Of a stretch of DNA of 64,000 nucleotides, positions 127 to 15,614 are shown piece by piece; the stretch's first letter is position 1, and each line of letters starts with the position of its first letter. The DNA comes from a virus: the IMG/VR virus record IMGVR_UViG_3300030106_005394, positions 8,705-72,704 of that record; one strand, written 5' to 3'. The position numbers were made by a program, and so were the translations under genes. The notes beneath the pieces are model-generated. The model saw nothing but the letters and a program-made list of their open reading frames with translations, was not told where the DNA came from and ran no database searches.

Positions 127-498
127 ATGGAAACTAATCCAATAGATGCTTATCTCAAAGACTACATGCAGCACCTTATATGGGTAGGTCTGTCCCTAGT
201 GGTATGGATGCTTATAAAGGACATGCTGGCCAAGTTAGCCGCAGGTATTACTTTCTATGCAAGCCCCAACTGGAGTGTAGGAGACGAGTGTTTAATCGAC
301 AACAAGCGCGCAATTATCAGCAGCATAGGAATAAGGACCACAGTTTTTCAAATAAGGCAAAATGGTGAAGTTCGGTGGAGATTTGTCCCAAATGACAAGA
401 TTACGGAACTTACACTAGAGAAGGTTGTGGACATGCACAACATTGAGAACCACTTAAAAAGAGATGTGGGATCTGGACACAATAAAAAAACTGAATGA
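127..498 (+). CDS. MscS-like small mechanosensitive channel fragment (TM helices plus beta domain)
   Basis: Hydrophobic N-terminus followed by WSVGDECLID...ISSIGIRTTVF...FVPND, matching the MscS GD-x-I...IG-x-R-x-T...VPN pattern; ATG at 127 follows GGGGAG. Confidence 0.7.
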   Translation: METNPIDAYLKDYMQHLIWVGLSLVVWMLIKDMLAKLAAGITFYASPNWSVGDECLIDNKRAIISSIGIRTTVFQIRQNGEVRWRFVPNDKITELTLEKVVDMHNIENHLKRDVGSGHNKKTE

Positions 499-695
499 CA
501 AGGAAGTCGAGCGCCGCAGGGAAAAGGTGCAAGAGGTGGTATCACCATTCACGCCCAAGCCCTTCACTCTTGATAAGGATGGAAAGAAGAAGGTTAAGGA
601 GGACAAGAAGGATGGAGGGAGTTAGTTCAGTAATTTTAATTGGCTGGGTAGGGGTTATATGCTTTCTAGCAGCCGCATACATTATACATTCATGA
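495..695 (+). CDS. Hypothetical small basic protein with C-terminal TM helix
   Basis: ATGA overlap with the upstream stop; Arg-rich stretch then hydrophobic VILIGWVGVICFLAAAYII. Confidence 0.5.
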   Translation: MTRKSSAAGKRCKRWYHHSRPSPSLLIRMERRRLRRTRRMEGVSSVILIGWVGVICFLAAAYIIHS

Positions 696-992
696 ATGAA
701 GAGGACACCACTCAAGCGCAAGACACCACTGAAGAGAACGGGTCGTCTGAGGCCAATGTCGAAGAAACGTCAGGAGGAGAGCAAGACGTACTCCCAGAGA
801 CGCCAGACCTTCCTACAGAAATACCCCCAATGCCAAGTGTGTCGCCGCCGAAAGGCAACAGATATACACCACGTGGCGGGCCGAGGTAAGAACTATCTTA
901 ACGAAGATACGTGGCTTGCTACATGCAGAGAGTGCCACGAAAGGATTCACAGGAATCCGAAATGGGCTAGAGAGAAGGGTCTACTTCTTTAA
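696..992 (+). CDS. HNH endonuclease
   Basis: CQVC...DIHH...TCRECHERIH zinc/HNH motifs; KRTPLKRKTPLKR N-terminus typical of phage HNH proteins. Confidence 0.85.
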   Translation: MKRTPLKRKTPLKRTGRLRPMSKKRQEESKTYSQRRQTFLQKYPQCQVCRRRKATDIHHVAGRGKNYLNEDTWLATCRECHERIHRNPKWAREKGLLL

Positions 993-1413
993 ACTCGTTT
1001 CTGTGTATATGACCAACAGGTTCCTCGTCTTGGTCATCCCTAGGCTTAGCGTTACCACCTATAAATCTTCCACCCCATCCGAAGTATTCGATGCCTGATG
1101 GGTTATATCTCCACCACCAAAGTCCGTCTGCATTCTTGAGTAAAAGAGTTACTGGTATATTCATGTTGGAGTAAGTCTGCATGTGCATCAGCTTTGCCAT
1201 GCTCATAATCAATGTACTGTACTTATTCCAAGAGAAAGTCCTGCATCTTACCTCTACAAGCCCTAGCATTCTTTTGTCTCTGAACACAGCAAAGTCCATA
1301 CGATACTGTATGGGTATCTTCTTGAAGCTGTAACCATAACGCTTCGCGAATGTCTGCATGACTTGTAATTCCTCATCTAGATTCGCCTTAGTTTCGTATA
1401 GGGGTCTACTCAC
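967..1413 (-). CDS. PD-(D/E)XK-like nuclease-fold protein
   Basis: YRMDFAV...LVEVRCR resembles D...ExK with K replaced by R. Confidence 0.55.
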   Translation of the reverse strand: MSRPLYETKANLDEELQVMQTFAKRYGYSFKKIPIQYRMDFAVFRDKRMLGLVEVRCRTFSWNKYSTLIMSMAKLMHMQTYSNMNIPVTLLLKNADGLWWWRYNPSGIEYFGWGGRFIGGNAKPRDDQDEEPVGHIHRNEFKEVDPSL

Positions 1414-1595
1414 TTACACTCCACCATTCTATATACTGGTACAGCCGTGTACGTCTCGCCCTCATGTGAATACTCTACTACATCCTCCCCAAAGATGTCC
1501 TCTGACATATTTATCACATTGACATCGCTTAATCGCAACCACTCCCCGTGCAGATTAACAAATGCAACAGACTCAAGCTTCTTCACTTCGTGCAT
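1410..1595 (-). CDS. Hypothetical protein
   Basis: In-operon ORF overlapping its neighbours. Confidence 0.55.
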   Translation of the reverse strand: MHEVKKLESVAFVNLHGEWLRLSDVNVINMSEDIFGEDVVEYSHEGETYTAVPVYRMVECK

Positions 1596-1905
1596 TTGGT
1601 CTATTATCTATAAAGGTTCCGTGTTTTGCTGAATCCAGTAGTATGGCACAGCTTGCCGCAATGTGAGCCAAGTGACATTCGCCCGTTTCCTTATCAAGGT
1701 CTTCTCCGTCAATCCAAGCGTCTATGTGTCTTCTCATTGCACCCACATAAGTCATTGCTGATATTCTTGATCCTCTTCGCCAGTTCCAAGCACCATACTT
1801 CTTTGCGCCAGAGGCAAGGGCAAATGCCATTGCCTCATTAAGTGCTGGAGGTATCAAGTGTAAGGGGGGCTTTTTGGATGCAGCGTGCTGCTTAGGGTCG
1901 CTCAC
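1573..1905 (-). CDS. dATP/dGTP diphosphohydrolase-domain protein (DUF5664-like)
   Basis: KPPLHLIPP...GAKKYGAWNWR...AMRRHIDAW.DGEDLD.ETG..HLAH signature. Confidence 0.85.
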   Translation of the reverse strand: MSDPKQHAASKKPPLHLIPPALNEAMAFALASGAKKYGAWNWRRGSRISAMTYVGAMRRHIDAWIDGEDLDKETGECHLAHIAASCAILLDSAKHGTFIDNRPNARSEEA

Positions 1906-2165
1906 TTCTTCTTGGCCTTTCTTGCTGCCTTCTTTAGTCTATTGTCTCTTTTGTCGATGAACTCCTGCCACTTATCCCTTGCAGATAATGCATCCTCTAG
2001 GGTCATGCCAGCATGTTCGGCAGGAAAACTAGGTTCCCCCTTTAGGTGTCTCTCTCCGACTGCACCCCATTTCGCAGACATAATCCTTAAGTCCCAAGTG
2101 CTTGGGTCCTTATAGTTGGGCACAAGAAGGACGTCCGTCAGTTTATAATCACTGGAACTTTGCAT
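1902..2165 (-). CDS. Hypothetical protein
   Basis: In-operon ORF with basic C-terminus. Confidence 0.55.
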   Translation of the reverse strand: MQSSSDYKLTDVLLVPNYKDPSTWDLRIMSAKWGAVGERHLKGEPSFPAEHAGMTLEDALSARDKWQEFIDKRDNRLKKAARKAKKK

Positions 2166-2358
2166 GCAATGTGCTGATTAGCTCAACCTGCATTTGCAAG
2201 GCTGCCTCAGTCATATCTTGCTTCTCAATCCACAGAGCATAGGCATCAATGTGCGATGCTATATTCCTGTAAACGTCTCCTATTGCTTTGAATCCGTCGA
2301 TGACTTGTTCTTTAGTAGCCACTCCAGATGTTGTTTTACTATCCTCAGATGCCGACAT
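2149..2358 (-). CDS. Hypothetical protein
   Basis: In-operon ORF. Confidence 0.5.
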   Translation of the reverse strand: MSASEDSKTTSGVATKEQVIDGFKAIGDVYRNIASHIDAYALWIEKQDMTEAALQMQVELISTLHAKFQ

Positions 2359-2585
2359 TGCTTTTTGGGTTTGATGTTATTATTCAGCTTGGGTCGTATG
2401 TTAAAGCTGAAATACTCACAAGAGCACTCTCCGTAACCATCGTACTCTTCTAAATCTACTAGGTGGACGTTTTCGTTTCGGGTTAAGCTTTTAACTAGGA
2501 ATCGGTATGGTGGATCAAGAACTTCTACTTTCATCCTCTTCATCATCTCGATTCTTTTCGCTTTTGCCAAATTCGAAATCACCAC
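2280..2585 (-). CDS. SWIM-type zinc finger protein (start probably downstream of 2585)
   Basis: ECSCEYF...QCRH matches the CxC...CxH SWIM motif. Confidence 0.65.
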   Translation of the reverse strand: MVISNLAKAKRIEMMKRMKVEVLDPPYRFLVKSLTRNENVHLVDLEEYDGYGECSCEYFSFNIRPKLNNNIKPKKQCRHLRIVKQHLEWLLKNKSSTDSKQ

Positions 2586-2703
2586 GCATTGGCTTACCTC
2601 CCCTTTTGGCCCAAAACTTTTCGTATCCCTCGTCTATCATTTTAGCGGTCTCTGACCACCATGACTCAGGGAGAGAATATAAATCTATCTCATCCCTGTT
2701 CAT
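2515..2703 (-). CDS. Hypothetical protein
   Basis: In-operon ORF. Confidence 0.5.
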   Translation of the reverse strand: MNRDEIDLYSLPESWWSETAKMIDEGYEKFWAKRGGKPMRGDFEFGKSEKNRDDEEDESRSS

Positions 2704-2717
2704 GGCAGCCCTAAATG

Positions 2718-3041
2718 CTATTCTTCCTTTTTCCCGCCTAAGAACCGAAACTCTCTTGCGCGAAACTTGGTTATAGTCCTGTTGTTTCCCTCCTTGTCCT
2801 GATAGGTCTGTTGATCGACGTTTCCCTCAATAAACACAGGCTCACCTTTGGAGGCCATGCAGATGATGTCTGCCAGCTTTCCCCACGCCTCACAGCGAAG
2901 GAACTGAACCTCATCTTCTCTTTCGTTCACCGCAATAGTGAACTCCACTTTTGTGATTTCTCCATTTTCAGAGTTAATCGCTCGCTTTTCTGGGTCAGCC
3001 GTAAGGTTGCCCATGATTACTACTTTAGCGTATCCTTTCAT
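2718..3041 (-). CDS. ssb: Single-stranded DNA-binding protein (no acidic tail)
   Basis: KVVIMGNLTADPE...FTIAVN...CEAWGKLA...KGEPVFIEG...YQDKEG OB-fold pattern. Confidence 0.92.
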   Translation of the reverse strand: MKGYAKVVIMGNLTADPEKRAINSENGEITKVEFTIAVNEREDEVQFLRCEAWGKLADIICMASKGEPVFIEGNVDQQTYQDKEGNNRTITKFRAREFRFLGGKKEE

Positions 3042-4384
3042 AGTCCGAATCTAGTTTGGGTTGTTGTTTTTGGGATGTCTTGTTCTTCTGAACCATCATC
3101 ATATGGTACGAATCTTTGGACTTCCCTTTGAAAGTTTAAGTCTGCAAATCCTTGTTGTCCGTTTCTGTTTTTAGCAACAGAGCACCTGACCAAGTTTGGG
3201 CTGCTTTGCTCCTCTGGTCTCCAGAGCATAAGGCAAACATCGCAATCTTGTTCAAGCTGTCCACTTTCTCTTAGGTCTGATAATTTAGGTCCTCTCTGAG
3301 CAATCTCGCTCTGTCGATTTAACTGACATAGCAAAAGGATTGGAATGTCAAGCTCCTTGCATAAGTTTTTAATAGAATTGGACATTTCTGCTACTTGTTG
3401 CTCTCTAGGGATGCGAGGATCTCTTGGTCTCACTAGCTGGAGGTAGTCAATTATTAGGAACCCAAGCCCACTACTCTTCAGTCGCCGTGCTCGCGCTCTA
3501 ATCTGAGCAACTGAGGGAGAAGGTGTTTCATCAATCCAGAAGGTAGAGTTCTCTAAATCTTTCTCAGCTTGATCTACTGCTTTCTCTTGGTTTTCAGTAA
3601 GCAAACCATCAACCATAATATCTGCTTTCACGTTCGCCAAGGAACAGACCATTCTCTGCATTAGCGAATCTGCCGACATCTCAATGGATTGATACAGCGT
3701 AGGGATATTATCCTTTAGTACCGCTTGCAGGAAGCAATGAAGTGAGAATGCAGTCTTTCCTACGCTTGGCCTTGCAGCCAGTAGAGTCAGCTCATTCCTC
3801 TTAAATCCTTTTAGCCTCACATCCAAGTCACGTATTCCAGAAGGGATGCCGCTTTTCCCTTGCGCTTCCTTCAGCCTAGCAATGGATGACTTTGCTATCT
3901 TAACAGCCTCAGAGCTATCGTGGAAGTATTCATTCCTGCATCTCTCCTTGGAGATTTGCATTACCTCGTTATCTACTGTATCCAAGATTGTTTCTATCTG
4001 GATTCGTTGCTGTGATATGGAATCCAGAGTCTGATTACATAAAGCTCTCAGCTTTCTTGATGCAGAGTCATTCTCTATGATCTCGGCCCACATATCGAAG
4101 TGTAAGCTCGTCTCAACTGATCCACTTATTGAATTTAGTGTGGCAAAGTCTATTTCATCTGCCCAACCAAGTTCCTTGATTCTCTCAAGTAGACTTAATT
4201 CATCAATCTCAGGGGAGGTATCCCAGAGGGATAATAGAGCCTTGAAGATCATTTGGTACTTTAGGTCATGGAAGGATGTGTGATCTATCCTCCTGTCTAG
4301 TGCCCTGCCTATGCAGTCTGGGTCAATTATGCAACAGGCGAGTACGCCTCTTTCTGCGTTTTGGTTGTATGTTGGTTCTGTCAT
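3038..4384 (-). CDS. dnaB: Replicative DNA helicase
   Basis: AERGVLA N-terminus, Walker A AARPSVGKT, SIEMS, IIDYLQL, QLNR, LSDLRESGQLEQDCD, AKNRNG. Confidence 0.96.
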   Translation of the reverse strand: MTEPTYNQNAERGVLACCIIDPDCIGRALDRRIDHTSFHDLKYQMIFKALLSLWDTSPEIDELSLLERIKELGWADEIDFATLNSISGSVETSLHFDMWAEIIENDSASRKLRALCNQTLDSISQQRIQIETILDTVDNEVMQISKERCRNEYFHDSSEAVKIAKSSIARLKEAQGKSGIPSGIRDLDVRLKGFKRNELTLLAARPSVGKTAFSLHCFLQAVLKDNIPTLYQSIEMSADSLMQRMVCSLANVKADIMVDGLLTENQEKAVDQAEKDLENSTFWIDETPSPSVAQIRARARRLKSSGLGFLIIDYLQLVRPRDPRIPREQQVAEMSNSIKNLCKELDIPILLLCQLNRQSEIAQRGPKLSDLRESGQLEQDCDVCLMLWRPEEQSSPNLVRCSVAKNRNGQQGFADLNFQREVQRFVPYDDGSEEQDIPKTTTQTRFGL

Positions 4385-5064
4385 GATAGTCCTTTCTCTT
4401 CTAGGTATTCGATTCTGTAAACGTCTAGGTTTGTAGCTTTCTCAAGCCACCCCTTTTCTTTCATCCACTTAATGAAGTCTTTCTCTGGGAATTCAACGGA
4501 AGGCGCAGGTATTCCCTTTCCCTGCAACCAAGTTCTGCAAGCATTTCTCCAAGTTGCATTCCAGTCGGCATAAGCCTTACCGCTTCCAATTGCCCAATTC
4601 TTGAAGAACTCAATTGCTCCTTCTGGGTCAAGGTTATTTTCGGAAGCATACTTAGGGTCACTGGGCTTCCAGTTTTCCTTCATTTTTGATCTTCTGCCTT
4701 TGATGGTTCCTTTTGATGGTTCTTTATAAAGAGAGGGGGTGTCCTGTGGGACACTACCCCCCCTGTCCTGTGGGACACCCCTGTCCTGTGGGACACCCCC
4801 CTCGCCCAATGGAGAAACTTGGTAGACGGAAGTCTCTAATCCGCCTCCAACAGATAGCCTCTCTAGAAGTCCCTTTGATTCCAGCTTCTCAATTAGCTTA
4901 GTCACTGATCTCCTCTGGACACGAACCTTTTGAGATAGGGTCTTAATTGAGGGCCAGCAAACTCCCTCGTCATTGGCATGGTCGCAGAGCGCCAGAAGCA
5001 GAAGTAGTTCTGATCCAGCCACATCCTCGTTACTCCAAGCCTGAGTCATTAGTCTTATGCTCAC
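4381..5064 (-). CDS. Phage replication initiator with N-terminal winged HTH
   Basis: LLLLALCDHANDEGVCWPSIKTLSQK HTH; internal direct repeats; lies directly upstream of dnaB. Confidence 0.85.
   Translation of the reverse strand: MSIRLMTQAWSNEDVAGSELLLLLALCDHANDEGVCWPSIKTLSQKVRVQRRSVTKLIEKLESKGLLERLSVGGGLETSVYQVSPLGEGGVPQDRGVPQDRGGSVPQDTPSLYKEPSKGTIKGRRSKMKENWKPSDPKYASENNLDPEGAIEFFKNWAIGSGKAYADWNATWRNACRTWLQGKGIPAPSVEFPEKDFIKWMKEKGWLEKATNLDVYRIEYLEEKGLS
4699..4803. repeat. Putative replication origin: three palindromic iterons plus an adjacent AT-richer direct repeat
   Basis: TGTCCTGTGGGACAC at 4740, 4764 and 4782 (TGTCC-N4-GGACA dyads); TTTGATGGTTC twice within 4699-4722; inside the initiator gene, as in lambda O. 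Confidence 0.8.
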
Positions 5065-5512
5065 CTTTCTGTATCCTTTCTTTTACTTTTTTTACAATTT
5101 CATCCCAGTCATCATCTAGGGTTATATGAACTCCAGTTCTGTCGCCCCAGCCCTTCATCAAGGTCATCTTCCAAATGATCTGGTCAGATACTAACCATCC
5201 GCAAGTAACCATTGAGTCAACAAAAATCTTACTCAAGTTATCTAGGTCAGGTTTTGTATACATTGGTAGCCACCCAAGGGTCTTGTTTTTTTGTGGCTCT
5301 GATTTCCTCCAAGGCCAAGTAAATGCAACCTTCAGAGTACACGGCTTAGAGAATGGTTCCTCTGGCGCATTAGGGGCAAGCAGGGATACCCAAGTATCCC
5401 TGCAAGCCACTCCACGCTTATCCTTAAACATCTTACCATCTTTGGTAAAGCGCAAGGAGCTTTGTGCTGTAGTCTTTGGAGCTACGCACGATATGAAAAC
5501 GTCATGCTGCAT
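5030..5512 (-). CDS. rusA: RusA-family Holliday junction resolvase
   Basis: TKPDLDNLSKIFVDSM...W..SDQII motif. Confidence 0.88.
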   Translation of the reverse strand: MQHDVFISCVAPKTTAQSSLRFTKDGKMFKDKRGVACRDTWVSLLAPNAPEEPFSKPCTLKVAFTWPWRKSEPQKNKTLGWLPMYTKPDLDNLSKIFVDSMVTCGWLVSDQIIWKMTLMKGWGDRTGVHITLDDDWDEIVKKVKERIQKGEHKTNDSGLE

Positions 5513-6266
5513 CGGCTAAAACCATTTTGTCCATTACTTTGGTTAGTAGATGCGTCCTGTCCTGCATTGTCGGGTATGACCATTTTTTGGCTACTTCCGT
5601 GAATGCATTGTACAGGCTCCAACAATCTCTATTTTTGAACGCATCATGCGTTGGATTATAGAAGGTGTTGACCCAAGGCTTCAGCATTGATGGAGGGATT
5701 GCTCCAGCACGCATAGCAACCATTATGATGTCGTGCGCTGTCAATCTATCCAAGGAGTGAGCCTTGTAGGCCTCAACTCGCTTTTCATTTTCCTCGAACT
5801 GCTTATTGAGTTCAGTTATTGCACCACTTAACATCTTAGGCAAGTCCTTGAAGATATTCTTGGTGTGCCTTCGGCCCACTACGATGTTAGCAGAGAAGCT
5901 CAGGTTGTCGCACACGAATACACGATTACCACATCCCATATTCGCCCTAAACTGCATAGTGCTGGAGTTCCTTAAGCCTACAAGCTTAGCCATATCCTCA
6001 TGGTTATTGCAGTTACGCAATTCCATAAGGCCAAACATATTATCCTGAGTAAGCTTACCATCTTTCTTTGAAAGAAAGCGTTGTAGGCTAAACTCCTCAT
6101 GGACAATTTTGTATCCAGCATTCTCTAGAGCATTCTGCACTTCGTTTAAGAAGTAGTCATGCCGAATGGGATAGTGAGTTTCCGTCATAGGTACTGGGTT
6201 TGTTAGTTTACCGAGTTCCTCTCTTGTGATATGGCGACCGCCACAATGGTTCATGAAACCTTTCAT
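5502..6266 (-). CDS. DUF932-like protein
   Basis: THYPIRH, GLRNS, RVFVCDNLSF, RHTKN, WSLYNAFTE motifs. Confidence 0.75.
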   Translation of the reverse strand: MKGFMNHCGGRHITREELGKLTNPVPMTETHYPIRHDYFLNEVQNALENAGYKIVHEEFSLQRFLSKKDGKLTQDNMFGLMELRNCNNHEDMAKLVGLRNSSTMQFRANMGCGNRVFVCDNLSFSANIVVGRRHTKNIFKDLPKMLSGAITELNKQFEENEKRVEAYKAHSLDRLTAHDIIMVAMRAGAIPPSMLKPWVNTFYNPTHDAFKNRDCWSLYNAFTEVAKKWSYPTMQDRTHLLTKVMDKMVLADAA

Positions 6267-7399
6267 GATTCGTCTTCCTTCTTTTTAGTATTCTTGATTA
6301 TACGGGCGGTAGATTCCTTAACCTGAACGGCACTAGCCGATTTCATTATATCCCGTAGTTCTTTTTTAGCTTTAGCTGTAGACTGGCCTGTTTTTTCAGC
6401 CCATATCTTAATTAGGTTCCTTTCTTGTAGTTTTACCAGCTTGTCCATCTCTTCGATGTCAAAGCCTCTTTCTCTGAGGATAGGCAGAGCCTTCTCCGTG
6501 TCGTAGGTGGCAATTTTCATGCCCCTACCCAGTTTGTAGCCCTCTACGGACTCAGGGTCGCTTTTAAGCTTATCCCTTACAGTTGACTTCACGCTCGCTG
6601 CGAACTTTTCGTACATTCCAGCCAGCGCATATGCCTTGCCCAGTTCTTCAGGGTCTTTGGATATCTCCTCAATGGTCTTACCCATTATTTCTTCTAGTAG
6701 TTGTCGAGCCTCTGGGCAGAATGGTAAGGCTCTGCAGTATTTGCATTGCTTCGCTCCAGCCACCCTAGGGGCATCGGGGTTTTTGATTGCCTTGGACAGC
6801 TTATACAATTTACCCGCCCAAGCTTTGACTGTAGCCCTATCGAGCATTGACACCGTATACATCGGATCAAGCAAAGGAGTTACTAGGGCCACAAAGCACT
6901 CCTGTATATTTTTATTCTCCTGCATTACGAGAGCCGCCAGCGTAAACAGCTGAGGGTTTACGTGAGCAGGAGAGTGCTCTCCGTACAGCATCTTGTAATC
7001 TACAATAAGCGCACGTTTATATTGAGGTATTATTTCAACATAGTCAGGTTTACCGCTAAGGAATGGAACGTCATTACTGTCACGTAACCACATCCGTTGT
7101 TCCTTAATCTGATAACCTTCACCCTTTATTGTGCGTTGACGTAGCTCATGTACTGCCAACTTTGAATTTGTGATGGCCCTAGCACGCTCAGGATCATCAA
7201 TCTCGTCAATGGGCATATCCATTTCAGCAAGTGCATGGCGAATTGTGCCTTCACTAGATTCAGAATACTGAATATCTGGCAGTCCCTTCTCCGCAAGAAA
7301 CTTACCCTTGCAGAGGAATAGGGACTCTACTCCCGACGCAGAGGGCATACCTCCACGCTCGTCAGCTAGATCATCAGAATGGGAGCTCATCTCCGTCAT
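6263..7399 (-). CDS. DUF2800/Cas4-like PD-(D/E)XK exonuclease
   Basis: GTIRH, EQRM, SGKPD, IVDYK, NPQL and CKYC...CP motifs; adjacent to ERF. Confidence 0.8.
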   Translation of the reverse strand: MTEMSSHSDDLADERGGMPSASGVESLFLCKGKFLAEKGLPDIQYSESSEGTIRHALAEMDMPIDEIDDPERARAITNSKLAVHELRQRTIKGEGYQIKEQRMWLRDSNDVPFLSGKPDYVEIIPQYKRALIVDYKMLYGEHSPAHVNPQLFTLAALVMQENKNIQECFVALVTPLLDPMYTVSMLDRATVKAWAGKLYKLSKAIKNPDAPRVAGAKQCKYCRALPFCPEARQLLEEIMGKTIEEISKDPEELGKAYALAGMYEKFAASVKSTVRDKLKSDPESVEGYKLGRGMKIATYDTEKALPILRERGFDIEEMDKLVKLQERNLIKIWAEKTGQSTAKAKKELRDIMKSASAVQVKESTARIIKNTKKKEDES

Positions 7400-8096
7400 C
7401 TCCTTCTAGATCAAATGGAAGCTCATCTACCTTCTTTGGTGTTTTAGCTTCCTCTATTTGCTTCTTACCTTCACTTGACGCCGCATCAAGTGCCGCACGG
7501 AATTGTGGGTTCTTGTTGTCAATGTTATCAATATACCATTGGAGTGACTGTTCTGGCAGGGAACTCAGGGGCTTACCCTTGTTTTTGCCAAACGGAACCA
7601 CGAAGTCGCCCCAGTCGCCAGTTTTATTTAACTCAACAGCTTTTGGTTTTTCAAACCTAGTCTCTTGTTTTTTGGGCTTAGGTTTGCTTGCTGGCTTTTC
7701 GTCTTTTCCGTGAGTATTGACCGCATCAGCATCCTTGCTGTCATCTATTGCGAATAGGCCATTTAAGGCATACTTGCGAGCGTAGGAGCTTGCTGCTCCC
7801 GTACACTGACTAGGTGACATTCCCTTGAGACTGCCTTCTTGCGCCCAGCCTACGCTTGAAACGCTCTCGCCGTTTGCGTGTAAGCTGGCTATGGCCTTAA
7901 CGTAGGTGTTTCCGTTTATATCATAAACCTCATCACTTAATGTGACTGCAGCTTTATGCGTTTCCAGTAGGGGCTTGAGTGCCTCAAGTATGTCCTCACA
8001 GCTCCTGTAGTTGTACCCGCCAAACTTATTTGTCTGTCCTTTGGGCGCGTTTAGCTGGCTCTGTATAAAGCCAAGCGTTTCTAGTGCTTCATTCAT
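7374..8096 (-). CDS. ERF-family ssDNA annealing protein with DUF3820-like module and acidic DELPF tail
   Basis: APKGQTNKFGGYNYRSCEDILEALKP...Q.TGAASSYARKYALNGLFAIDD; C-terminal VPFGKNKGKPLSSLP. Confidence 0.9.
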   Translation of the reverse strand: MNEALETLGFIQSQLNAPKGQTNKFGGYNYRSCEDILEALKPLLETHKAAVTLSDEVYDINGNTYVKAIASLHANGESVSSVGWAQEGSLKGMSPSQCTGAASSYARKYALNGLFAIDDSKDADAVNTHGKDEKPASKPKPKKQETRFEKPKAVELNKTGDWGDFVVPFGKNKGKPLSSLPEQSLQWYIDNIDNKNPQFRAALDAASSEGKKQIEEAKTPKKVDELPFDLEGDDGDELPF

Positions 8097-8198
8097 TTTT
8101 ACCTTCCTTTTGAGATTATCGGCTAAATCGGTTCGCCGAATAAACTGCAGTTTTGTGAATTAATCCTCGACTGCAAGTTTTTTCTGAAAAAAAATTAA

Positions 8199-8228
8199 TT
8201 GACAGGATATGTGCGTATACCTGACACT
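8199..8228 (+). promoter_or_regulatory. Sigma70-like promoter with upstream A-tract
   Basis: TTGACA at 8199, 18-nt spacer, weak -10 GACACT; A/T tract upstream. Confidence 0.5.
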
Positions 8229-8234
8229 CCACGC

Positions 8235-8293
8235 ACATCTTCCACGTGCCCCTCGGTAGGTTCTTATCCTTTCTTCCTGCCGAGGGGTTTTTT
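8235..8293 (+). ncRNA. Candidate ~60-nt small RNA or leader ending in an intrinsic terminator with an anti-Shine-Dalgarno loop
   Basis: Lies between the promoter at 8199 and the hairpin at 8249-8287 plus T6; loop TTCTTATCCTTTCTT. Confidence 0.45.
8249..8293 (+). terminator. Rho-independent terminator
   Basis: CCCCTCGGTAGG / CCTGCCGAGGGG 12-bp stem (one G-U pair), 15-nt loop, TTTTTT. Confidence 0.8.
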
Positions 8294-8335
8294 ATAGTTG
8301 ACTGACTAGTGTCTTTTGGTTTTGGGTTTTAATCT

Positions 8336-8602
8336 ATGGACAGCGATACTGCGGACTTGATACAAAAAACAGTAAACCCACTTTTATCCGAGTTTCTTGA
8401 CGGATTCATAATAGCAGGAGTTAAGGCTGGCACAGACAAGAAGGTGATATGCATTAAAATGCCACCTCCTCGTCCTGCTAGAGGGTATGAAGACCCAGAC
8501 TTCTATCACAATGACGAGCCTTACGTAAGAGCCGAGGATAACTTTTTGCCCCTATTATCATGTATAGAGGAGTGGGCTGAAATAAATATAGATTTAGAAT
8601 GA
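8336..8602 (+). CDS. Hypothetical protein
   Basis: First ORF of the rightward operon; ATGA overlap with the next gene. Confidence 0.65.
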   Translation: MDSDTADLIQKTVNPLLSEFLDGFIIAGVKAGTDKKVICIKMPPPRPARGYEDPDFYHNDEPYVRAEDNFLPLLSCIEEWAEINIDLE

Positions 8603-8955
8603 GCTGGAAATGGTTTGATAAGTACCCACCACCTCTCGTTAGGTGCTTGGCTAGACGTAAGCTATCAGGTAGCCACGTTGTTGCGATGTCTGATGAAGAG
8701 GTAGCCCTGCGGGCAGATATACCCTTACTAAGGATAAAGGAGATATCAACAAAGAATGATTGGAGTGACGTGCCTATAGATGAGGCGAGAAGTTTCTGCA
8801 GTGCATGCAACTTCGATATATTCAATTCTGCAGACAGGAACAGAGCAGGAGCCTACCTTCGAAAAGGCGCTAAGTTTCAGTATTTAAAAGTATCTCCACA
8901 CTGGAAGACAACATTCCTCCCATTGATACAAGCCATGAGAAGTAATGCCCAATAG
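8599..8955 (+). CDS. Hypothetical protein, possible HTH
   Basis: MSDEEVALRADIPLLRIKEIS resembles an HTH. Confidence 0.55.
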   Translation: MSWKWFDKYPPPLVRCLARRKLSGSHVVAMSDEEVALRADIPLLRIKEISTKNDWSDVPIDEARSFCSACNFDIFNSADRNRAGAYLRKGAKFQYLKVSPHWKTTFLPLIQAMRSNAQ

Positions 8956-9619
8956 GCAATCCATACCGATAGCAGAGCTATCAGAGGCTCTCCGCAGGAA
9001 CGAGGGAGATAGGGATGCTACAGCAAAGGAGCTAGGCATTACAAAGAACTATCTTAGTGTCAGAATCAACAAGACACCAGCCCTTAAAGCTCTTTGGTCT
9101 AACACCGAGCCTATTGACCCATCTAGTGCAGAAGCTGAAATTCGAAAGGCTCCACACAAGCCTACGGCTGATCCAATATCGGATAAGCGAAGTCTGGAGG
9201 TTTGGCAGAAGAACGGAAAAGATGTCTTCATGGAAGAAATCTCTTCTATGCTACATAACAAGGATAACATTGCGAAGCTGGACATATTTAAGGGCTTTGA
9301 GGGCAATGTTGGACTACATATGGCCAGAGCCTTGGAGATGACCCAGAATGTGAATATGCGTCAGAACGTAACACTTTTTGAGGTAGCAGAGAACCTGAGA
9401 GATCAAATACTGAGCGGAGCCTTAGATGAAGAGTCCGAGATTATGAAAACCAGACTTTATGTATCATGCTGCGAACAGCAGGGTAAGTTCTACGACAGGC
9501 TACTTAGGGGACTGGAGGCCATGCTCAAGATGACCGAGAAGGAGGCTGGCAAGAAAAAGAAGAAGGCTGGGTTCCAGCCACTGTCAGAATTACAAAAGGC
9601 TGAAGATGCAGAAGAATAA
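8945..9619 (+). CDS. Putative terminase small subunit (N-terminal Fis-like HTH)
   Basis: EALRRNEGDRDATAKELGIT HTH, helical body, position upstream of TerL. Confidence 0.5.
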   Translation: MPNRQSIPIAELSEALRRNEGDRDATAKELGITKNYLSVRINKTPALKALWSNTEPIDPSSAEAEIRKAPHKPTADPISDKRSLEVWQKNGKDVFMEEISSMLHNKDNIAKLDIFKGFEGNVGLHMARALEMTQNVNMRQNVTLFEVAENLRDQILSGALDEESEIMKTRLYVSCCEQQGKFYDRLLRGLEAMLKMTEKEAGKKKKKAGFQPLSELQKAEDAEE

Positions 9620-9797
9620 GCAGATACAGCAGTTCTTAACTCAGTCAGATATAATTAATGGATTCTGGGAGGAGTTTGAGGCTAAGCATGAAACCCAGAA
9701 AGAGGAGCACCCTTGGAAACTTAAATACTTTGTTGCTCTTGCATTCGCAGAGGGAGTAGCGATGGGTATGAAGAATGCCAAAGCAGAAGAAAATTGA
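9606..9797 (+). CDS. Hypothetical protein
   Basis: In-operon ORF. Confidence 0.5.
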   Translation: MQKNKQIQQFLTQSDIINGFWEEFEAKHETQKEEHPWKLKYFVALAFAEGVAMGMKNAKAEEN

Positions 9798-11313
9798 TAC
9801 AGCCGCAATTCTTAATCGCTTAGGCGACTTACAGGATGACGAGAAGAAGGAGACAGAGCCATGGCTCCCATCACTTTCTAAGACCCAAAGGGAGATATTT
9901 GACGACTCCTCAAGGTACATACTTGCTTATGGCGAGAGAGGTACTGGAAAGACTTATGTACTGGGTGGACACAAGCTCGTACGCCATTGCTATGAGAACT
10001 TTAATGCTCTAGCTCTTTGTGTAGTTGGCGTTAAGTCACAGGCCACCATGGGTGGGGTCTGGCATAAGCTTCAGACTGAGATACTGCCCCTGTGGGCAGA
10101 GGGCCTAGGTATAAACATTACCGAGGAAAGAAGGGACGAGCAAAAGAACTTATATGTTGATGTAGAGAATAGGTATGGTGGATACTCTAGGGTTGTAGTA
10201 ATATCTGTTCCATATGGAGCTTTTATACGAGATAGGATAAAAGGGTTTGAGCCATCTTATGTATTTATTGATGAGCTTACTAACTTGGATACCGATGATT
10301 ACTTTAATGCGGTAGTACAGCAGATAGGTAGACGTCCGGGTATTCGTGGGCCACAGCAATATACTGCCGCATGCAACCCTGACGGCCCATCACATTGGGT
10401 ATACAAGAGGTTCTTTGAGATACCTTATAATGACGAGGGGGAGTGGAATGACGATTATTCCGTGTACCACCTCAAGATAGAAGAGAATAAGGACAACCTA
10501 CCCAAGGGATACTACGATAATGTCATGGAGGCTGTGGCCGATGATCCTATCGAAGAGGCCCGAATGATTCGCGGTGAATGGATAGATAGACCGCTGGGAG
10601 ATGCTATATTTAGACCCTACTTCCTAGAAAACATACATATGAAGGGGGATGCCAAGCATGACATACTCCCTAACCCAAAGTACCCGATAATATGCGGATG
10701 GGATCCGGGTGCCGTAAATAACGCCATCATATTCCTTCAGTGCTTAGTTGGTTCAGACAAGACTATATGGTTATGTTTCGACGAGATGATATGGATAAAT
10801 GAGAAGATGCCTTACACTGCCATGATACCAAAGGTCATGAGACAGATGAGGTATTGGAATAATAAAATGGACACCAAGTTTACCTTTGAGCACATAAGTG
10901 ATAACTCGGCATTCAATCAGTTTAGGGCTAGGAGCGGAAGTTACGATGTGAGGGATATTCAGCAAATATCAGCCGAAAAGGCCGAATCCTTTGACATGGA
11001 GTCCATAAGAATGAAGGCCGCCCCAAAGTTTTCTGGTTCCGTCGAGGCTAGAGTTAGGCTTATGATCTCAAAACTACAGCAAGAGGAGTTTATGCTTTCA
11101 CATAGGTGCTCAAATATTAAGAAGATGTTTTATAGTCTTGTGGCCGAAAAGGGCAGGTCTGGCAAGTATGACCCATCATTGCCATTTAAGCCAAGAAGGA
11201 GTGTGTACATACATGGATTTGATGCCCTTACATATCCTATGCTTTATTATAACGCAGGCGCAATGATGCCTACCGAAAGAGCAGCATCTGAAATAATTGA
11301 AGTCGGTGCTTGA
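9775..11313 (+). CDS. terL: Terminase large subunit
   Basis: Walker A GERGTGKT, Walker B VFIDE, ACNP coupling motif, nuclease GWDPG and DALTY. Confidence 0.93.
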   Translation: MPKQKKIDTAAILNRLGDLQDDEKKETEPWLPSLSKTQREIFDDSSRYILAYGERGTGKTYVLGGHKLVRHCYENFNALALCVVGVKSQATMGGVWHKLQTEILPLWAEGLGINITEERRDEQKNLYVDVENRYGGYSRVVVISVPYGAFIRDRIKGFEPSYVFIDELTNLDTDDYFNAVVQQIGRRPGIRGPQQYTAACNPDGPSHWVYKRFFEIPYNDEGEWNDDYSVYHLKIEENKDNLPKGYYDNVMEAVADDPIEEARMIRGEWIDRPLGDAIFRPYFLENIHMKGDAKHDILPNPKYPIICGWDPGAVNNAIIFLQCLVGSDKTIWLCFDEMIWINEKMPYTAMIPKVMRQMRYWNNKMDTKFTFEHISDNSAFNQFRARSGSYDVRDIQQISAEKAESFDMESIRMKAAPKFSGSVEARVRLMISKLQQEEFMLSHRCSNIKKMFYSLVAEKGRSGKYDPSLPFKPRRSVYIHGFDALTYPMLYYNAGAMMPTERAASEIIEVGA

Positions 11314-11338
11314 CCCTACTTAAATTTAGTAACACAAT
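11310..11338 (+). promoter_or_regulatory. Sigma70-like promoter overlapping the terL stop
   Basis: TTGACC-N17-CACAAT. Confidence 0.5.
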
Positions 11339-11347
11339 TCTAAAACC

Positions 11348-11605
11348 ATGCAAAATCTAGACAGCGTACATATTGACATTGAGGATAACGAAGACGTGGC
11401 CGAGCTATTTGAGGGATGCAAGGCTGGCCATGTAGTAAGAATTACTATGGAGGCTACCATTACCGAGCGAACCGAGGATCGAGTTGCGGCAAGCGTTGAT
11501 GGCATTGAGCAGGTAGATAAAATTGGCGGGTACGATGAGGACGAAGAGGACGAGGATATGGAAGATGCCGAAGAGGATGAAGAAGGGGCCGACGAGGAGT
11601 ATTAA
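11348..11605 (+). CDS. Small acidic hypothetical protein
   Basis: D/E-rich C-terminus. Confidence 0.65.
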   Translation: MQNLDSVHIDIEDNEDVAELFEGCKAGHVVRITMEATITERTEDRVAASVDGIEQVDKIGGYDEDEEDEDMEDAEEDEEGADEEY

Positions 11606-11942
11606 TGGAGCCAGATCTTCCACGACGGCTTCAAGAATCATCGACGCGCATTATGAAGAAAAAAGCATTAGACGCTTGTGGAATCTTGGCAGAGCTGAAA
11701 GGCTTGCTAGGGCGCTCAACCTCACTCTTCCTGAGATTGCTAGCATTATTGCTTACCCGCATCCGGACTTTCTTAGGCAAATTGAAAAAGGGAAGTTAAA
11801 CGGACCAGCTTGCGTACTACTTACACTTATAGAGCACGCATACCTAAACGACCTAGTACACGATACAGTAGACTTATTTAACTTCCATGGTAGACCTGAA
11901 GATATTAAAGGAGATGGGGTGCACATCGGCGCGCCTGCGTGA
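11565..11942 (+). CDS. HTH-containing protein
   Basis: LARALNLTLPEIASIIAY...QIEKG...GPACVLL, XRE-like HTH. Confidence 0.55.
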   Translation: MPKRMKKGPTRSINGARSSTTASRIIDAHYEEKSIRRLWNLGRAERLARALNLTLPEIASIIAYPHPDFLRQIEKGKLNGPACVLLTLIEHAYLNDLVHDTVDLFNFHGRPEDIKGDGVHIGAPA

Positions 11943-14145
11943 GATTTTCACATCAGAAGAAGGCGGTGAAGATCATAAGATAAAGGAGAGGCTCACCGAA
12001 AAGATAGAGTCTAGAATACATGATGGAGTCATGTTTAGCTCTAGGCACGCGAATTTATATATGTCCGTTGACCTTGCTTGGGATAGTCTGCCAATTAATA
12101 AGGCAACTATACCTTTGCTTCAATATGCTCAGGGCAAAATAGACATAGAGTCATGCCATAGGGACTTAGAGGGACTTGATTGTGCTGACCAGTTCTGTGA
12201 GTACGACGAGGAGAATGCTCTGAAGTCAATTAACATAATGAGACTGTACGAGGTTTCTGTTAATTTAATTAGGTCTTACGTAACACGAAGAGTTGCCGCT
12301 CAGGTATCAAGATTTAACAATCTATTTCCTTTCTTTAAGTACGAGCCGAGAGGCACAGGTACCATAGATAAGGTCAGAGGGGATGTTTTGTCTCAAAGAA
12401 TAGAGATTATGGCAGACCAGTTTGGTTACCGACATCACTTCTCTCAGGCCATACGTGACATGTTCCTGTATGGGAAAACAGTAAACTTTCCGACCCAAGG
12501 GTGGACTAGGGATGTCTCTTGGAGGAATGTATCAGACCCAGTTACTGGGGAGACCGAAAAAGAATCCTATGTTGAGCGTGAGGGCGTAGCATTTGTTAAG
12601 CCCCACCCAACTAGGGTTTTCTGGGATCAGTCCAGTCCATTGCCTCAGATTAACGACAATATTGGCCCTGACTGGATCGGGTACTGGGATATCGTTAAGT
12701 ATTCAGATATGCACAAGAACCCTGCATATTGGAATACCGATAAGATCGAATTTAACAATAGTCTTATCGGCGTGTATGACCAGAACAAGCAGTTCTTTAA
12801 GTATTACTTCGACTCAAGTAGCCTTACGTTTCCTCGCACCAAAGATAACTTTTCCTTCCAGAATGAGCGCACAGCCAATATAGGGATATACTCTGCTGAA
12901 GAGCAGGACAAGGGAATGTTCCTAACTAATCTATTTATGAAGGTAAATCCCAAAGCCGAGGGCATTGGTGATTATCCTTTTGATGTATGGATGAAGCTTG
13001 TTGTGGCATCGGACTCGACAGTTCTTTATGCGGAATTCCTTCCATCTATTCCTGCAATATATGGAGGAATTAACGAGAATGACGACAGGTTGGCAAATAT
13101 CTCAATAGCCCATGAGATTATGCCTTTTCAGGATCAGATGAATAACATTATGACATCAATGCTTCACCTCATGAAGGTCGGCATGATGAAAATAATTGCA
13201 ATTGATCAAGATGCTATAGACCCAGAAATTAGAGAGTACATAAAAGATGCACTTGCCGAGGACACGTTCTACGCCAAACCAAAAGCTATATTTTATTCAG
13301 GAACTAAAGCAGCGGACCTTGGAATTAACGCAAATAACTTTGTTAATGTCGTTGATGTTCATACTGAGCTTGCGGGCAGTATCAATCAAAGCATTCAAGG
13401 TATTTTGCAGTTACTTAACTTGGTTGAGAGACTGCTTATCCTGTCTCCGCAGGAGCTAGGGCAACCATCACCTCGTGAGATCTCGGCAACAGAAGTAACC
13501 GAGATAGCCAATACCACGAATGCCTTATATACATTTATATCAGACGGAATTGATGACCTCCGATCTGCTGCAAAAAAGATGCTTTACGAGCACCTTGTTG
13601 GATGCTCAACAGAGCCATTTAATGTTCCAGTTAAGGGTAGATATACTGTAAAGGCTATTCAGAATGCAGGATTTGAGGCAGAGGATACTGGGGATTTGCC
13701 AGAAATTCCTCGCCGAAGAAATGTAGTCGGGCTACCCATGGATTTACAGCACGAATATATGTTTTCTTCTAGGGATGGAGCCGAGAGAGCTAGGGATGTT
13801 CAGTCTGCTCAGGTGCTGGGTCAGTTGCTACAGCAGTTACTACAGGTTCCAGAGTTAGCTCAGTCGGTTGGTAAGGAAAGAATTTTTGATATGCTAAATG
13901 AGGTCTTTAGAATGAGCGGGGCAGGATACGATCTGCTTCTAGAGACAGACGAGATGGAGGATCTGCAATTGACTCAAAGTATGCAACAGGAGCAGTTCTT
14001 GCAGCAACTTCAAGAGCAGATGCCTCAATTAATGCAGGCATTACAGAATCTCAATGAACGTGTTGGCGGGATTGAGCAAATGGCTGGGGTTGAGCCTCCT
14101 GCAGAAGGCGGTGCACCCCAACAGGAGCAACCTCCCCCACAGTAA
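11887..14145 (+). CDS. Portal protein (head-tail connector)
   Basis: Size and position after TerL; REISATEV motif reminiscent of the podoviral portal TATE motif; Q-rich tail. Confidence 0.8.
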   Translation: MVDLKILKEMGCTSARLREIFTSEEGGEDHKIKERLTEKIESRIHDGVMFSSRHANLYMSVDLAWDSLPINKATIPLLQYAQGKIDIESCHRDLEGLDCADQFCEYDEENALKSINIMRLYEVSVNLIRSYVTRRVAAQVSRFNNLFPFFKYEPRGTGTIDKVRGDVLSQRIEIMADQFGYRHHFSQAIRDMFLYGKTVNFPTQGWTRDVSWRNVSDPVTGETEKESYVEREGVAFVKPHPTRVFWDQSSPLPQINDNIGPDWIGYWDIVKYSDMHKNPAYWNTDKIEFNNSLIGVYDQNKQFFKYYFDSSSLTFPRTKDNFSFQNERTANIGIYSAEEQDKGMFLTNLFMKVNPKAEGIGDYPFDVWMKLVVASDSTVLYAEFLPSIPAIYGGINENDDRLANISIAHEIMPFQDQMNNIMTSMLHLMKVGMMKIIAIDQDAIDPEIREYIKDALAEDTFYAKPKAIFYSGTKAADLGINANNFVNVVDVHTELAGSINQSIQGILQLLNLVERLLILSPQELGQPSPREISATEVTEIANTTNALYTFISDGIDDLRSAAKKMLYEHLVGCSTEPFNVPVKGRYTVKAIQNAGFEAEDTGDLPEIPRRRNVVGLPMDLQHEYMFSSRDGAERARDVQSAQVLGQLLQQLLQVPELAQSVGKERIFDMLNEVFRMSGAGYDLLLETDEMEDLQLTQSMQQEQFLQQLQEQMPQLMQALQNLNERVGGIEQMAGVEPPAEGGAPQQEQPPPQ

Positions 14146-14162
14146 CATAAACAAAAAGAACT

Positions 14163-15458
14163 ATGGACGAGACACAAGTTACGGAGGACCCTAACCTGCA
14201 AGAGGAGGTACAAACGGGTGAAGAGGAAACAGAGGACGGAGGTCTGGTAGGTGCTACCCTATTCGACTCGCTTTATGCCGCCGCCGAGGGCGAAGAGGCT
14301 GAGGTAAGTGATGGGGGGCAAGCTGTAACAGACAGCTTATCGGGCGAAGCTCAGCAGCAACCTCAGGCCGAAGAAGAGCCACAGGCAGAAGCTGAACCCA
14401 AGAAAAAGGTTAAGCGGATACACAAGAAGGAGGTCATTGATCCCGATCTTCCAGAAGAAGAGTCTAGTGAGGGCCATGAGCCAGTATCTGAATCCGATGA
14501 CGACGAGGAGTTTTTACTTCCAGAGGAGAGGGAGCAACTTAAGGTAGTTAAGCACATCTCTAATAAGAATAATACAAATCAAGATAAGGAGCTTAAGGAG
14601 TATTTTAGGAAGCAGAAGGAATACATCGAAAAGCGACTGGAGGAGAATCCAGACTTAAACCTTAGCGATGACCACGACTTTGAGCAATTTGTAGCAAGAA
14701 ACCGACCTCAGTTAGATATGGCCGAGGTGCGTGCTGCAGAAAGGGAAATGTTGCTGGACGAGGCAGAAGAGAGGGCATTAAAACGCCTCAGGCCAGAAGT
14801 CGAAAAGACTAATATTGAAACTAGACGCTTGCAAATCAAGCCCAAGGTCGAAGAGGAGAAGCAAAAGGCAGAACAGAAGGCTATGTCTATGGTTCCAGAG
14901 TTTCTTGCAGATGACCTAAAGAATAGAAGTCCAGAGGATGTCCAGAAGGATAACCCTTATGAATTTAATATTGTAAATACTGCGGTAACAAACGCCTCAA
15001 GATTTGCATCTACCTTTCTTGATATATCAAAAGGCATGGTAGATTATGACCCACACAATCCAGAGCATGACCAGTTGAGGGATTGGCTGGTTAAGGAGCA
15101 GGATGCCTTCATTAATGGTGGTCAAACGAAGGATCAACAAGGAAGGCCATTCATGCGAAGGGAAAGATATCTGAGGCTTTCTTCTGCGGATCAGCAGAAA
15201 TATTGGACTTGGACTGACGACCAGTGCGTAGATATTATGTACGCAAGGGCAAAGACCACAATGGAATCCGAGCTAGAGCAGCACAATAAGGCAATGCAAG
15301 CCTACTTAAGTAGGAATGGCCAGCAGCGACCTCAGGCCGCTCCAGCACAGGCTGCACCAACTCCACCAGCACCTAAGCCCACTCCTAGAGCTGGAGGAAC
15401 TCCTCAGGCTCAAACCCAAGACCAAGTGCCCTCTCCATTATCAGTGTTAGGTATGTAG
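14163..15458 (+). CDS. Putative capsid scaffolding protein
   Basis: Acidic and coiled-coil with a Pro/Ala-rich C-terminus; lies between portal and capsid. Confidence 0.65.
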   Translation: MDETQVTEDPNLQEEVQTGEEETEDGGLVGATLFDSLYAAAEGEEAEVSDGGQAVTDSLSGEAQQQPQAEEEPQAEAEPKKKVKRIHKKEVIDPDLPEEESSEGHEPVSESDDDEEFLLPEEREQLKVVKHISNKNNTNQDKELKEYFRKQKEYIEKRLEENPDLNLSDDHDFEQFVARNRPQLDMAEVRAAEREMLLDEAEERALKRLRPEVEKTNIETRRLQIKPKVEEEKQKAEQKAMSMVPEFLADDLKNRSPEDVQKDNPYEFNIVNTAVTNASRFASTFLDISKGMVDYDPHNPEHDQLRDWLVKEQDAFINGGQTKDQQGRPFMRRERYLRLSSADQQKYWTWTDDQCVDIMYARAKTTMESELEQHNKAMQAYLSRNGQQRPQAAPAQAAPTPPAPKPTPRAGGTPQAQTQDQVPSPLSVLGM

Positions 15459-15493
15459 TTCTTAGTATTTAAAACCCAGTTTTGAGGTTTCAG

Positions 15494-15528
15494 CCCCAAG
15501 CCTGTTTTATCGGGTTTGGGGTTTTTTT
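15494..15528 (+). terminator. Rho-independent terminator between scaffold and capsid genes
   Basis: CCCCAAGCCTG-TTTTAT-CGGGTTTGGGG followed by T7. Confidence 0.75.
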
Positions 15529-15614
15529 GCACTTTTTTCACTTTTTTCTAGGGGTTAGCACATAACATCGGTTATGTTCCTGACGTTTTAAACCATTCAA
15601 CCCACATATATAAA

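Follow-up and report, generated by a model that had tools for sequence, protein, structure and literature searches.

What does a terminator-like hairpin with an unusually large, pyrimidine-rich loop do between the replication genes and the late genes of a phage? This question is raised by IMG/VR virus record IMGVR_UViG_3300030106_005394, a 72.7-kb viral record of which we analyzed bases 8705 to 72704 (64,000 nucleotides; here called the window, with positions counted from its first base). In the window, a divergent junction at 8097 to 8335 separates a leftward (minus-strand) gene block from a rightward (plus-strand) one, and the hairpin lies within this junction. A preliminary description of the locus had proposed that a promoter at the junction drives a small RNA (sRNA) that ends in the hairpin, and that the loop is complementary to the ribosome-binding sites of replication genes and could occlude them. 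We found that the hairpin is one copy of a real, conserved phage RNA hairpin, as judged by sequence comparison, which occurs in many unrelated phages and is apparently undescribed and unnamed. That its loop pairs with AGAAAGG-type ribosome-binding sites, in an anti-Shine-Dalgarno mechanism, is plausible, and we put the probability of this at roughly 0.35.

The plus strand of the junction (8199 to 8300) is predicted to fold into two hairpins at −39.3 kcal/mol (z = −5.8), a value that none of 200 shuffled sequences equaled. The second of these, the motif hairpin, has a 13-bp stem in which the 5′ arm (8248 to 8260) pairs with the 3′ arm (8276 to 8288), counting a G8248-U8288 pair and one internal G-U pair. 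Both arms are assigned from the fold and from compensatory changes across hairpin families, and the 5′ arm also from compensatory changes relative to the closest relative of the window phage. The arms enclose a 15-nt loop, TTCTTATCCTTTCTT (8261 to 8275), whose conserved core, TCTTATCCTTTCT, occupies 8262 to 8274. A T6 tract (8288 to 8293) lies immediately 3′ of the stem and, together with this G+C-rich stem, gives an end like that of an intrinsic terminator; the 59-nt segment folds at −26.2 kcal/mol. The loop falls outside the 3 to 8 nt allowed by the terminator scan that we used, which listed just a sub-hairpin with a 6-bp stem and an 8-nt loop at 8268 to 8287. The late-gene strand carries the hairpin, with the leftward Erf/replication genes on one side and the first late open reading frame (ORF) on the other; the hairpin lies about 45 nt downstream of a TTGACAG sequence and 43 nt upstream of that ORF, and there is no credible ORF between it and the ATG at 8336. 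Thus, a hairpin with a T6 tract ahead of any ORF, and an unusually large loop, are both present as first described.

Retrieval based on the large terminase protein (TerL) yielded 59 loci related to the window phage, which has no close cultured relatives either by DNA or by terminase protein. The closest relative, locus L082 (TerL 84% identical, Erf gene present), is the only one of the 59 with a similar intergenic region. Its 13 loop bases, TCTTATCCTTTCT, are identical to those of the window, and its stem is rewritten (CCCTCGTCTTGG/CCAAGGCGGGGG) with compensation and with plus-strand wobble pairs. A metagenome scan for further members of this lineage returned only the contig of L082 and two chance matches. 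Of 24 sequencing runs listed, none is recorded as RNA, and we drew natural variant contigs from the DNA of four runs. One of them spans 8168 to 8458 and leaves the element unchanged; a second, which ends at 8261, differs at 8214, 8220, and 8230, all in the upstream hairpin of the fold. This upstream hairpin (8209 to 8238, plus strand; 8-bp stem ATGTGCGT/ACGCACAT, 14-nt loop) was considered as a functional part and set aside, because it is not conserved in L082 and because the change at 8214 in the variant contig is uncompensated.

The motif recurs far beyond this lineage. The exact loop, UCUUAUCCUUUCU, is found in at least 275 viral loci, and 38 of the 275 listed have at least 8 contiguous flanking base pairs, compared to a control rate of 0.71% at 200,000 random positions in the same loci. 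Likewise, the 16-mer consisting of GGT and the loop is present in 49 loci, versus 11 for a reversed control. The hairpins form about 15 stem families with unrelated arms, distributed over unrelated viral contigs and two gammaproteobacterial genomes; their carriers range from 38 to 55% G+C, and each locus has only one copy. In one broad lineage, whose major capsid proteins are 49 to 83% identical, the loop is constant and the stems are wholly different. The closing GG..CC pairs are conserved, and a second loop allele, UCUAACCUUUCU, which retains CCUUUCU, is carried by several unrelated stems. Relatives of the largest family and new stems (L604/L605/L591 and L621) have the second-allele form TTCTAACCTTTCT or the rarer TTCTAATCC and TTATAACC. 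Comparison of the two alleles leaves UCU-WA-(U)CCUUUCU as the invariant part. The module would therefore be described as a variable G+C-rich hairpin that presents a fixed 13- to 15-nt pyrimidine loop, (U/G)UCUUAUCCUUUCU(N), closed by GG..CC.

Several groups of matches were rejected along the way. Five further clusters were discarded as coding sequence or weak A/T stems, including a coding-sequence family and a Collinsella gene end, and many matches of a 15-mer scan proved to be conserved coding sequence with a 6-bp pseudo-stem and no motif. In the Collinsella matches (L415 to L533, about 30 loci), the 13-mer identical to the loop belongs to coding sequence at the 3′ end of a membrane-protein gene, and the covariance model that we built for the motif, R1, gave no match there. 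An exact-pattern scan of bacteria returned at least 120 loci, with one true hairpin among the matches listed. R1 located the motif in two gammaproteobacterial genomes, one of them already known from that scan; the newly found copy has another stem, the loop TTCTTATCCTTTC, and a T tract after one A (ATTTTTTTT). A third R1 match falls in a further genome, flagged as unpublished. R1 found no copy in 151 Bacteroidota or in 151 Actinomycetota, in a search of low sensitivity that scored the best 40 candidates per genome.

Evidence that the stem is maintained by base pairing comes from its pattern of change. In 18 chosen sequences, 9 of the 10 stem pairs show changes on both sides, a count that is not independent because the sequences were selected for having stems. 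R1 aligned 63 matches, 37 of them distinct, and its sole strong match in the window is the motif hairpin (8245 to 8293, plus strand; 51 bits). Over the 37 distinct rows, 85.6% of cells pair, versus 64.1% when shuffled, and double changes occur in 9 of 10 pairs; the covariation score is 0.431 versus 0.159, with none of 500 shuffles as high, and drops to 0.2 after the partner column is slid by one, all in an alignment that is fitted by the model and so biased toward the structure. The preliminary description had asked for a covarying stem with a conserved loop in related phages, and this pattern extends far beyond them. The kind of wobble pair also indicates the strand. The 58 best R1 matches (33 distinct rows, the five weakest having been dropped) contain 24 G-U cells and 6 A-C cells, indicating that folding occurs on the strand that carries the pyrimidine loop. 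We rejected on this wobble bias a minus-strand reading in which the loop, as AAGAAAGGAUAAGAA, would be a ribosome-binding site or stabilizer (with a 40-aa ORF at 8238 to 8116); it is also contradicted by other phages, in which annotated neighbor genes have the pyrimidine-loop strand as their coding strand.

Where neighboring genes are annotated, the motif is on the coding strand of late genes, and its positions follow a pattern. In the largest family, the tail/lysis block ends with an M23-peptidase/endolysin-like gene, at whose stop codon the hairpin starts; this hairpin has no U tract, and one base further on comes a separate canonical terminator, followed by a RecE-like gene. The new gammaproteobacterial copy lies behind a lysis cassette of an amidase and a small phage protein. 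In a capsid-associated lineage, the motif, which has a UUUUCCUUUU tail, comes after a prohead protease gene and a 74-aa gene and ahead of the major capsid gene, whereas it precedes ParB-N/DNA-methylase genes in three other families and the first late gene in the window and L082. A T-rich tail directly follows the stem in 8 of the about 15 families. Collectively, the motif marks the boundaries of late transcription units, often as a terminator hairpin. No protein is common to its carriers in the stretches compared: tblastn of all ORFs of the window genome against 49 motif loci gave one weak, unrelated match, and comparison of flanking ORFs tied together only related lineages, plus the downstream ParB/methylase genes of the three families. 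For this reason, the loop would be expected to have a partner that occurs in many hosts.

One such partner is suggested by the loop itself. The 3′ ends of the 16S ribosomal RNA (rRNA) genes of Brucella, Paraburkholderia, Ekhidna, and Flavobacterium read CACCTCCTTTCT (more fully, GGATCACCTCCTTTCT in the first two and GGAACACCTCCTTTCT in the last two), and the last eight conserved bases of the loop, TCCTTTCT, are identical to this end at all eight positions in these four bacteria. A resemblance to the 16S 3′ end had been suspected, and the comparison makes it exact over eight bases. At the RNA level, UCCUUUCU in the loop equals the last eight bases of ...CACCUCCUUUCU; the motif copy differs from the 16S tail in being held within a hairpin loop instead of forming a free 3′ end, and in being outside the ribosome. 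Given this identity, the loop is complementary to the AGAAAGGA ribosome-binding sites of these phages. Five other motif-bearing genomes contain 12 AGAAAGGA sites in addition to the complement of the motif, and for 11 of the 12 an ATG or GTG comes 3 to 10 nt later; these sites are on either strand and include late genes. The window has AGAAAGGA ahead of four minus-strand genes (DnaB, the initiator, and two others) and of no plus-strand gene.

The matches that the preliminary description listed upstream of minus-strand starts are all present, at 5 to 13 nt from the start codons. They are the AGAAAGGATA Shine-Dalgarno region (5072 to 5081, minus strand) of the O-like initiator gene (4381 to 5064), which is the best predicted pairing partner of the loop; the AGAAAGGA Shine-Dalgarno site (4390 to 4397, minus strand) of the DnaB-like helicase gene (3038 to 4384), an 8-mer match; and the AGAAAGGATA Shine-Dalgarno region (63263 to 63272, minus strand) of a 70-aa gene (63046 to 63258), a 10-mer match. 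The 10-mer TATCCTTTCT occurs three times in the window (5072 to 5081, 8265 to 8274, and 63263 to 63272), where 0.20 occurrences are expected, and none of 100 shuffles reached three. The 8-mer TCCTTTCT, including 4390 to 4397, occurs six times versus 3.3 expected; 12 of 100 shuffles reached six, which is not significant. In predicted duplexes of the loop with 85 translation-initiation regions, the initiator was the best (−15.9 kcal/mol), 13 regions reached −9 kcal/mol or lower, and 9 of the 11 best duplexes were with minus-strand start regions.

Based on these observations, the loop would be the functional surface of the hairpin, its 3′ part, UCCUUUCU, being a copy of the 16S tail. The window copy may double as an intrinsic terminator (13-bp stem plus U6), and, with a terminator about 45 nt past TTGACAG, transcription entering from that side would end as a ~60-nt RNA or a short leader that exposes the loop. 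The loop may then pair with the AGAAAGG(A)-type Shine-Dalgarno tracts before DnaB, the initiator, and two other minus-strand genes, and when late-strand transcription is high, this pairing would lower the translation of those genes. The scheme supposes an active promoter at this site, accumulation of the RNA, and a loop that works through base pairing and not through protein binding. Pairing would be favored by the exact 8-nt identity to the 16S tail and by the retention of CCUUUCU in both loop alleles, and the loop would act as a decoy of that tail on short or 3′-terminal late RNAs. The hairpin has the conserved single-stranded seed that is expected of a base-pairing sRNA, in that the loop is unpaired in the fold and conserved across about 15 stem families, and we take the CUUA (or CUAA) step of the loop to fit the YUNR U-turn of antisense-RNA recognition loops.

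A number of results weigh against this pairing mechanism. First, the excess of complementarity is marginal: in 300 trials, 5.7% and 8.3% of base-shuffled loops equaled the two duplex values, since purine-rich start regions give reasonably good duplexes with any pyrimidine loop of similar composition. Second, conserved complementarity to defined targets, the other property expected of a base-pairing sRNA, is absent. The ribosome-binding site of the L082 initiator reads AGAAAGGAaaaaaa, in which AGAAAGGA is kept and the 15-nt match is lost, and the 9-mer AGAAAGGAT, in 4 of 5 other genomes with the motif, has no occurrence besides the complement of the motif itself. The candidate pairing sites are generic Shine-Dalgarno tracts on the opposite strand, 3 to 55 kb from the hairpin. 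The complementarity that is conserved between these sequences is a generic 8 nt with no gene-specific target, and the specific target list that had been proposed dissolves into ordinary AGAAAGGA Shine-Dalgarno sites. Third, the CCUCC core of the 16S tail is not copied (the loop has UAUCC, or AACC in the second allele), so the loop would not compete for GGAGG-type sites, and conservation of the 5′ half of the loop (UCUUA) is left unexplained by pairing with AGAAAGG. Fourth, AGAAAGGA in the capsid-associated lineage precedes the late gene just after the capsid gene; hence, the motif does not simply separate early from late genes. Fifth, the motif is missing, both by sequence and by covariance model, from the other 58 terminase relatives, which share just the TTTGGTTTT..TTTTAA leader ahead of the first late gene, and it is thus dispensable for this genome architecture. 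Finally, the promoter that the sRNA was proposed to use is in doubt. The TTGACA hexamer itself (8199 to 8204, plus strand) is there, preceded by an A/T-rich tract, and TTGACAG is kept behind an A/T tract in L082, making it a candidate −35 or other recognition site; however, neither the window nor L082 has an acceptable −10 hexamer after it, and a sigma-70 promoter scan of 1 to 20000 on both strands listed no site at this position. Upstream of the hairpin there are no plus-strand genes, only this hexamer, and in other phages the same hairpin is found at the 3′ ends of late operons, not behind a promoter of its own.

An alternative that we regard as nearly as likely as anti-Shine-Dalgarno pairing, and hold just as tentatively, is that a protein binds the loop, by which the hairpin would become a conditional terminator or a stability element. 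Binding would decide between a stop and read-through into the late genes, or would protect the 3′ ends of late mRNAs. The binder could be a host factor, such as a cold-shock protein, NusB-S10 (the GUUCUUA of the loop is boxA-like, a resemblance that we take to be partial), or ribosomal protein S1, or it could be a small phage protein. Such binding would account for conservation of the whole 13-nt loop, beyond the part that can pair with AGAAAGG, for a loop of 15 nt, which is unusual for a plain terminator, and for the location of the motif at transcription-unit boundaries (first late gene, protease/capsid, lysis end, and ParB/methylase). It also fits the lack of a partner in cis, since no AGAAAGG-like tract is conserved within 300 nt of the hairpin in 20 representatives, and the lack of a phage protein common to the carriers in the stretches compared points to a host factor. 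On the other hand, cold-shock proteins and S1 bind U-rich RNA with low specificity, which is a poor fit to a near-invariant 13-mer, and protein binding would leave the exact 8-nt identity to the 16S tail as a matter of chance. In addition, Pfam searches of 10 small ORFs near the junction, to which the search for a Q-like antiterminator was limited, found no antiterminator, recognizing instead SSB, a MazZ-like domain, and a PDDEXK nuclease. Table 1 of one report gives GTCTTTT/G and TTCTTTT as recognition heptamers of cold-shock proteins (PMC5571963), which the GTCTTAT and TTCTTAT of the loop resemble, and another report states that cold-shock proteins are believed to act in anti-termination (PMC1636342).

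A variant of the pairing mechanism, which we consider unlikely, is that the hairpins of late transcripts act together as a decoy of the 16S tail, soaking up AGAAAGG-type sites or a factor that handles the 16S tail. Abundant late RNAs would in that case shift translation from host and early messages to late messages that lack such sites; in the window, most late genes are indeed without a Shine-Dalgarno site.

Less probable still is a role as an ordinary intrinsic terminator, which would keep the divergent early and late units apart by blocking stray plus-strand transcription, with no function in trans and a loop conserved for a structural or kinetic reason internal to termination. The strong stem plus T6, the T-rich tails of 8 of the about 15 families noted above, and the placement between oppositely oriented gene blocks are all as expected of such a terminator. 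However, a terminator alone would not hold a 13-nt loop constant across unrelated phages (38 to 55% G+C) as their stems turn over; the hairpin of the largest family lacks a U tract and is followed by its own canonical terminator; and large loops weaken terminators, so that the loop must be kept for another reason. A DNA-level role, in which the loop of a strand-specific single-stranded DNA hairpin is recognized by a replication, nicking, or packaging enzyme, is very improbable: a variable stem presenting a fixed loop is the classic architecture of rolling-circle origins, the window element adjoins the replication module, and the one-strand G-T bias would also fit a single-stranded DNA hairpin, but many families have T tracts after the stem, annotated late genes have the folded strand as their coding strand, with the element at operon ends or just past a stop codon, the carriers have no Rep, nickase, or other protein in common, and other phages carry the element far from replication genes.

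Comparison to known RNAs did not reveal a described family. With Rfam 15 at gathering scores, the window and 14 motif-bearing loci had no match except unrelated transfer RNA (tRNA) and transfer-messenger RNA, and E-value scans of the window element and two other contexts gave chance-level matches only. A literature search that included searching by sequence, with supplementary motif lists outside its scope, returned no description of the loop or motif. Among known systems, the nearest functional analogue is the c4 RNA of phages P1 and P7. c4 is cut out of a longer transcript, and the CI RNA of phage P4 is comparable to this antisense RNA. The account of c4 in PMC12197685 has its complementary sequences, probably in loops, binding around the ribosome-binding site and blocking translation. 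The motif would likewise be a small phage RNA with a loop sequence directed against ribosome-binding sites, its pairing being predicted. Unlike the motif, which conserves 8 nt of generic Shine-Dalgarno complementarity, c4 has long, specific sites in its own operon; the candidate sites of the motif, on the opposite strand and far away, are not of this same-operon type. Moreover, the motif loop sits in a terminator hairpin and recurs in unrelated phages, and there is no sequence similarity between the two.

Three other comparisons are informative. In lambdoid late operons, the promoter PR′ is followed by the promoter-proximal terminator tR′, yielding 6S RNA, and Q antitermination acts there. The window would resemble this arrangement, with a terminator shortly past a candidate promoter and just before the first late gene, which would give a short RNA. 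It differs in that the 10 nearby ORFs encode no Q-like protein by Pfam and the window promoter is only a candidate; in addition, tR′ loops are not known to be conserved across unrelated phages, whereas the motif is found elsewhere at operon ends or before capsid genes. The staphylococcal Rsa RNAs, which are sRNAs of the host, pair with Shine-Dalgarno sites through several short C-rich loops and have defined regulons. Like them, the motif has an unpaired pyrimidine loop that could serve as a seed against purine-rich ribosome-binding sites; unlike them, it has a single 13- to 15-nt U/C loop, is a terminator hairpin, and is phage-borne. With Rho-independent terminators in general, it shares a G+C-rich stem and a U tract, and it differs from them in its conserved 15-nt loop and in the largest family, which has no U tract of its own.

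The gene layout around the junction is as follows. On the left, the minus-strand block encodes an Erf-like annealing protein (7374 to 8096, the first gene of the leftward recombination/replication operon), an exonuclease, a RusA-like resolvase, and the O-like initiator and DnaB-like helicase described above. On the right, the plus strand has three small ORFs from 8336, then the large terminase gene (9775 to 11313) and a long structural block. The first ORF on this late (packaging/structural) strand, at 8336 to 8602, lacks a Shine-Dalgarno site and follows a conserved TTTGGTTTT..GGTTTTAA leader. This leader, TTTGGTTTT(N)GGTTTTAA, abuts the first late ATG in the window (8314 to 8335), in L082 (2595 to 2616), and in L108, L128, and others; it is kept also by terminase relatives without the hairpin motif and may be a translation-start or promoter element. 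In the 5′ leader region of the Erf gene (8110 to 8135), a further, small hairpin shows a compensatory change (CGGC...GCCG versus GGGC...GCCC) between the window and L082. Shine-Dalgarno sites are missing from most genes of the window, including nearly all late genes, and their use is uneven: the left minus-strand block often has GGAG/AAGGA tracts, and most plus-strand late genes, as well as most minus-strand genes on the right (50941 to 63927), have A-rich leaders without a Shine-Dalgarno site.

We also recorded several features elsewhere in the window and in related loci. The structural block contains a single ORF of 5699 aa (32678 to 49777, plus strand), which matched no Pfam family when scanned in two halves, and a 1314-aa ORF (25374 to 29318) likewise had no Pfam match. 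A 110-aa ORF (1573 to 1905, minus strand) matched PF18909, a dATP/dGTP diphosphohydrolase N-terminal domain (E = 1.6e-29); enzymes of this type are associated with phages that modify their DNA bases. At the position equivalent to the motif, the terminase relatives L097 (2520 to 2600) and L136 (2650 to 2700) have a tRNA-like cloverleaf on the opposite strand, seen in folds only, and the same intergenic regions carry short direct repeats, CGCTCCCAATCGCTCC. In the capsid-associated lineage, a second conserved block, GGTTGAGYGTWAGCRCC ... CAGTTCNGCGTNAGCGC, lies between the motif and the capsid gene (L382, about 3990 to 4060; also L361, L332, and L353). The nearest cultured relative of this lineage, Pontimonas phage phiPsal1, lacks the motif and has the second block (L625, 5680 to 5730), which may be another structured leader.

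To our knowledge, short regulatory RNAs of phages come from a handful of model phages, and each is lineage-specific. Here, a 13-nt loop is held constant across phages without detectable common proteins while its stems turn over, which points to a partner present in many different hosts. Should the loop pair with ribosome-binding sites, the hairpin would give phages a simple, portable means of adjusting translation late in infection; should a host protein bind the loop instead, the hairpin would be a new conditional terminator. Either way, the outcome is a concrete, testable RNA motif with a covariance model, R1, that can be searched for in viromes and metatranscriptomes.

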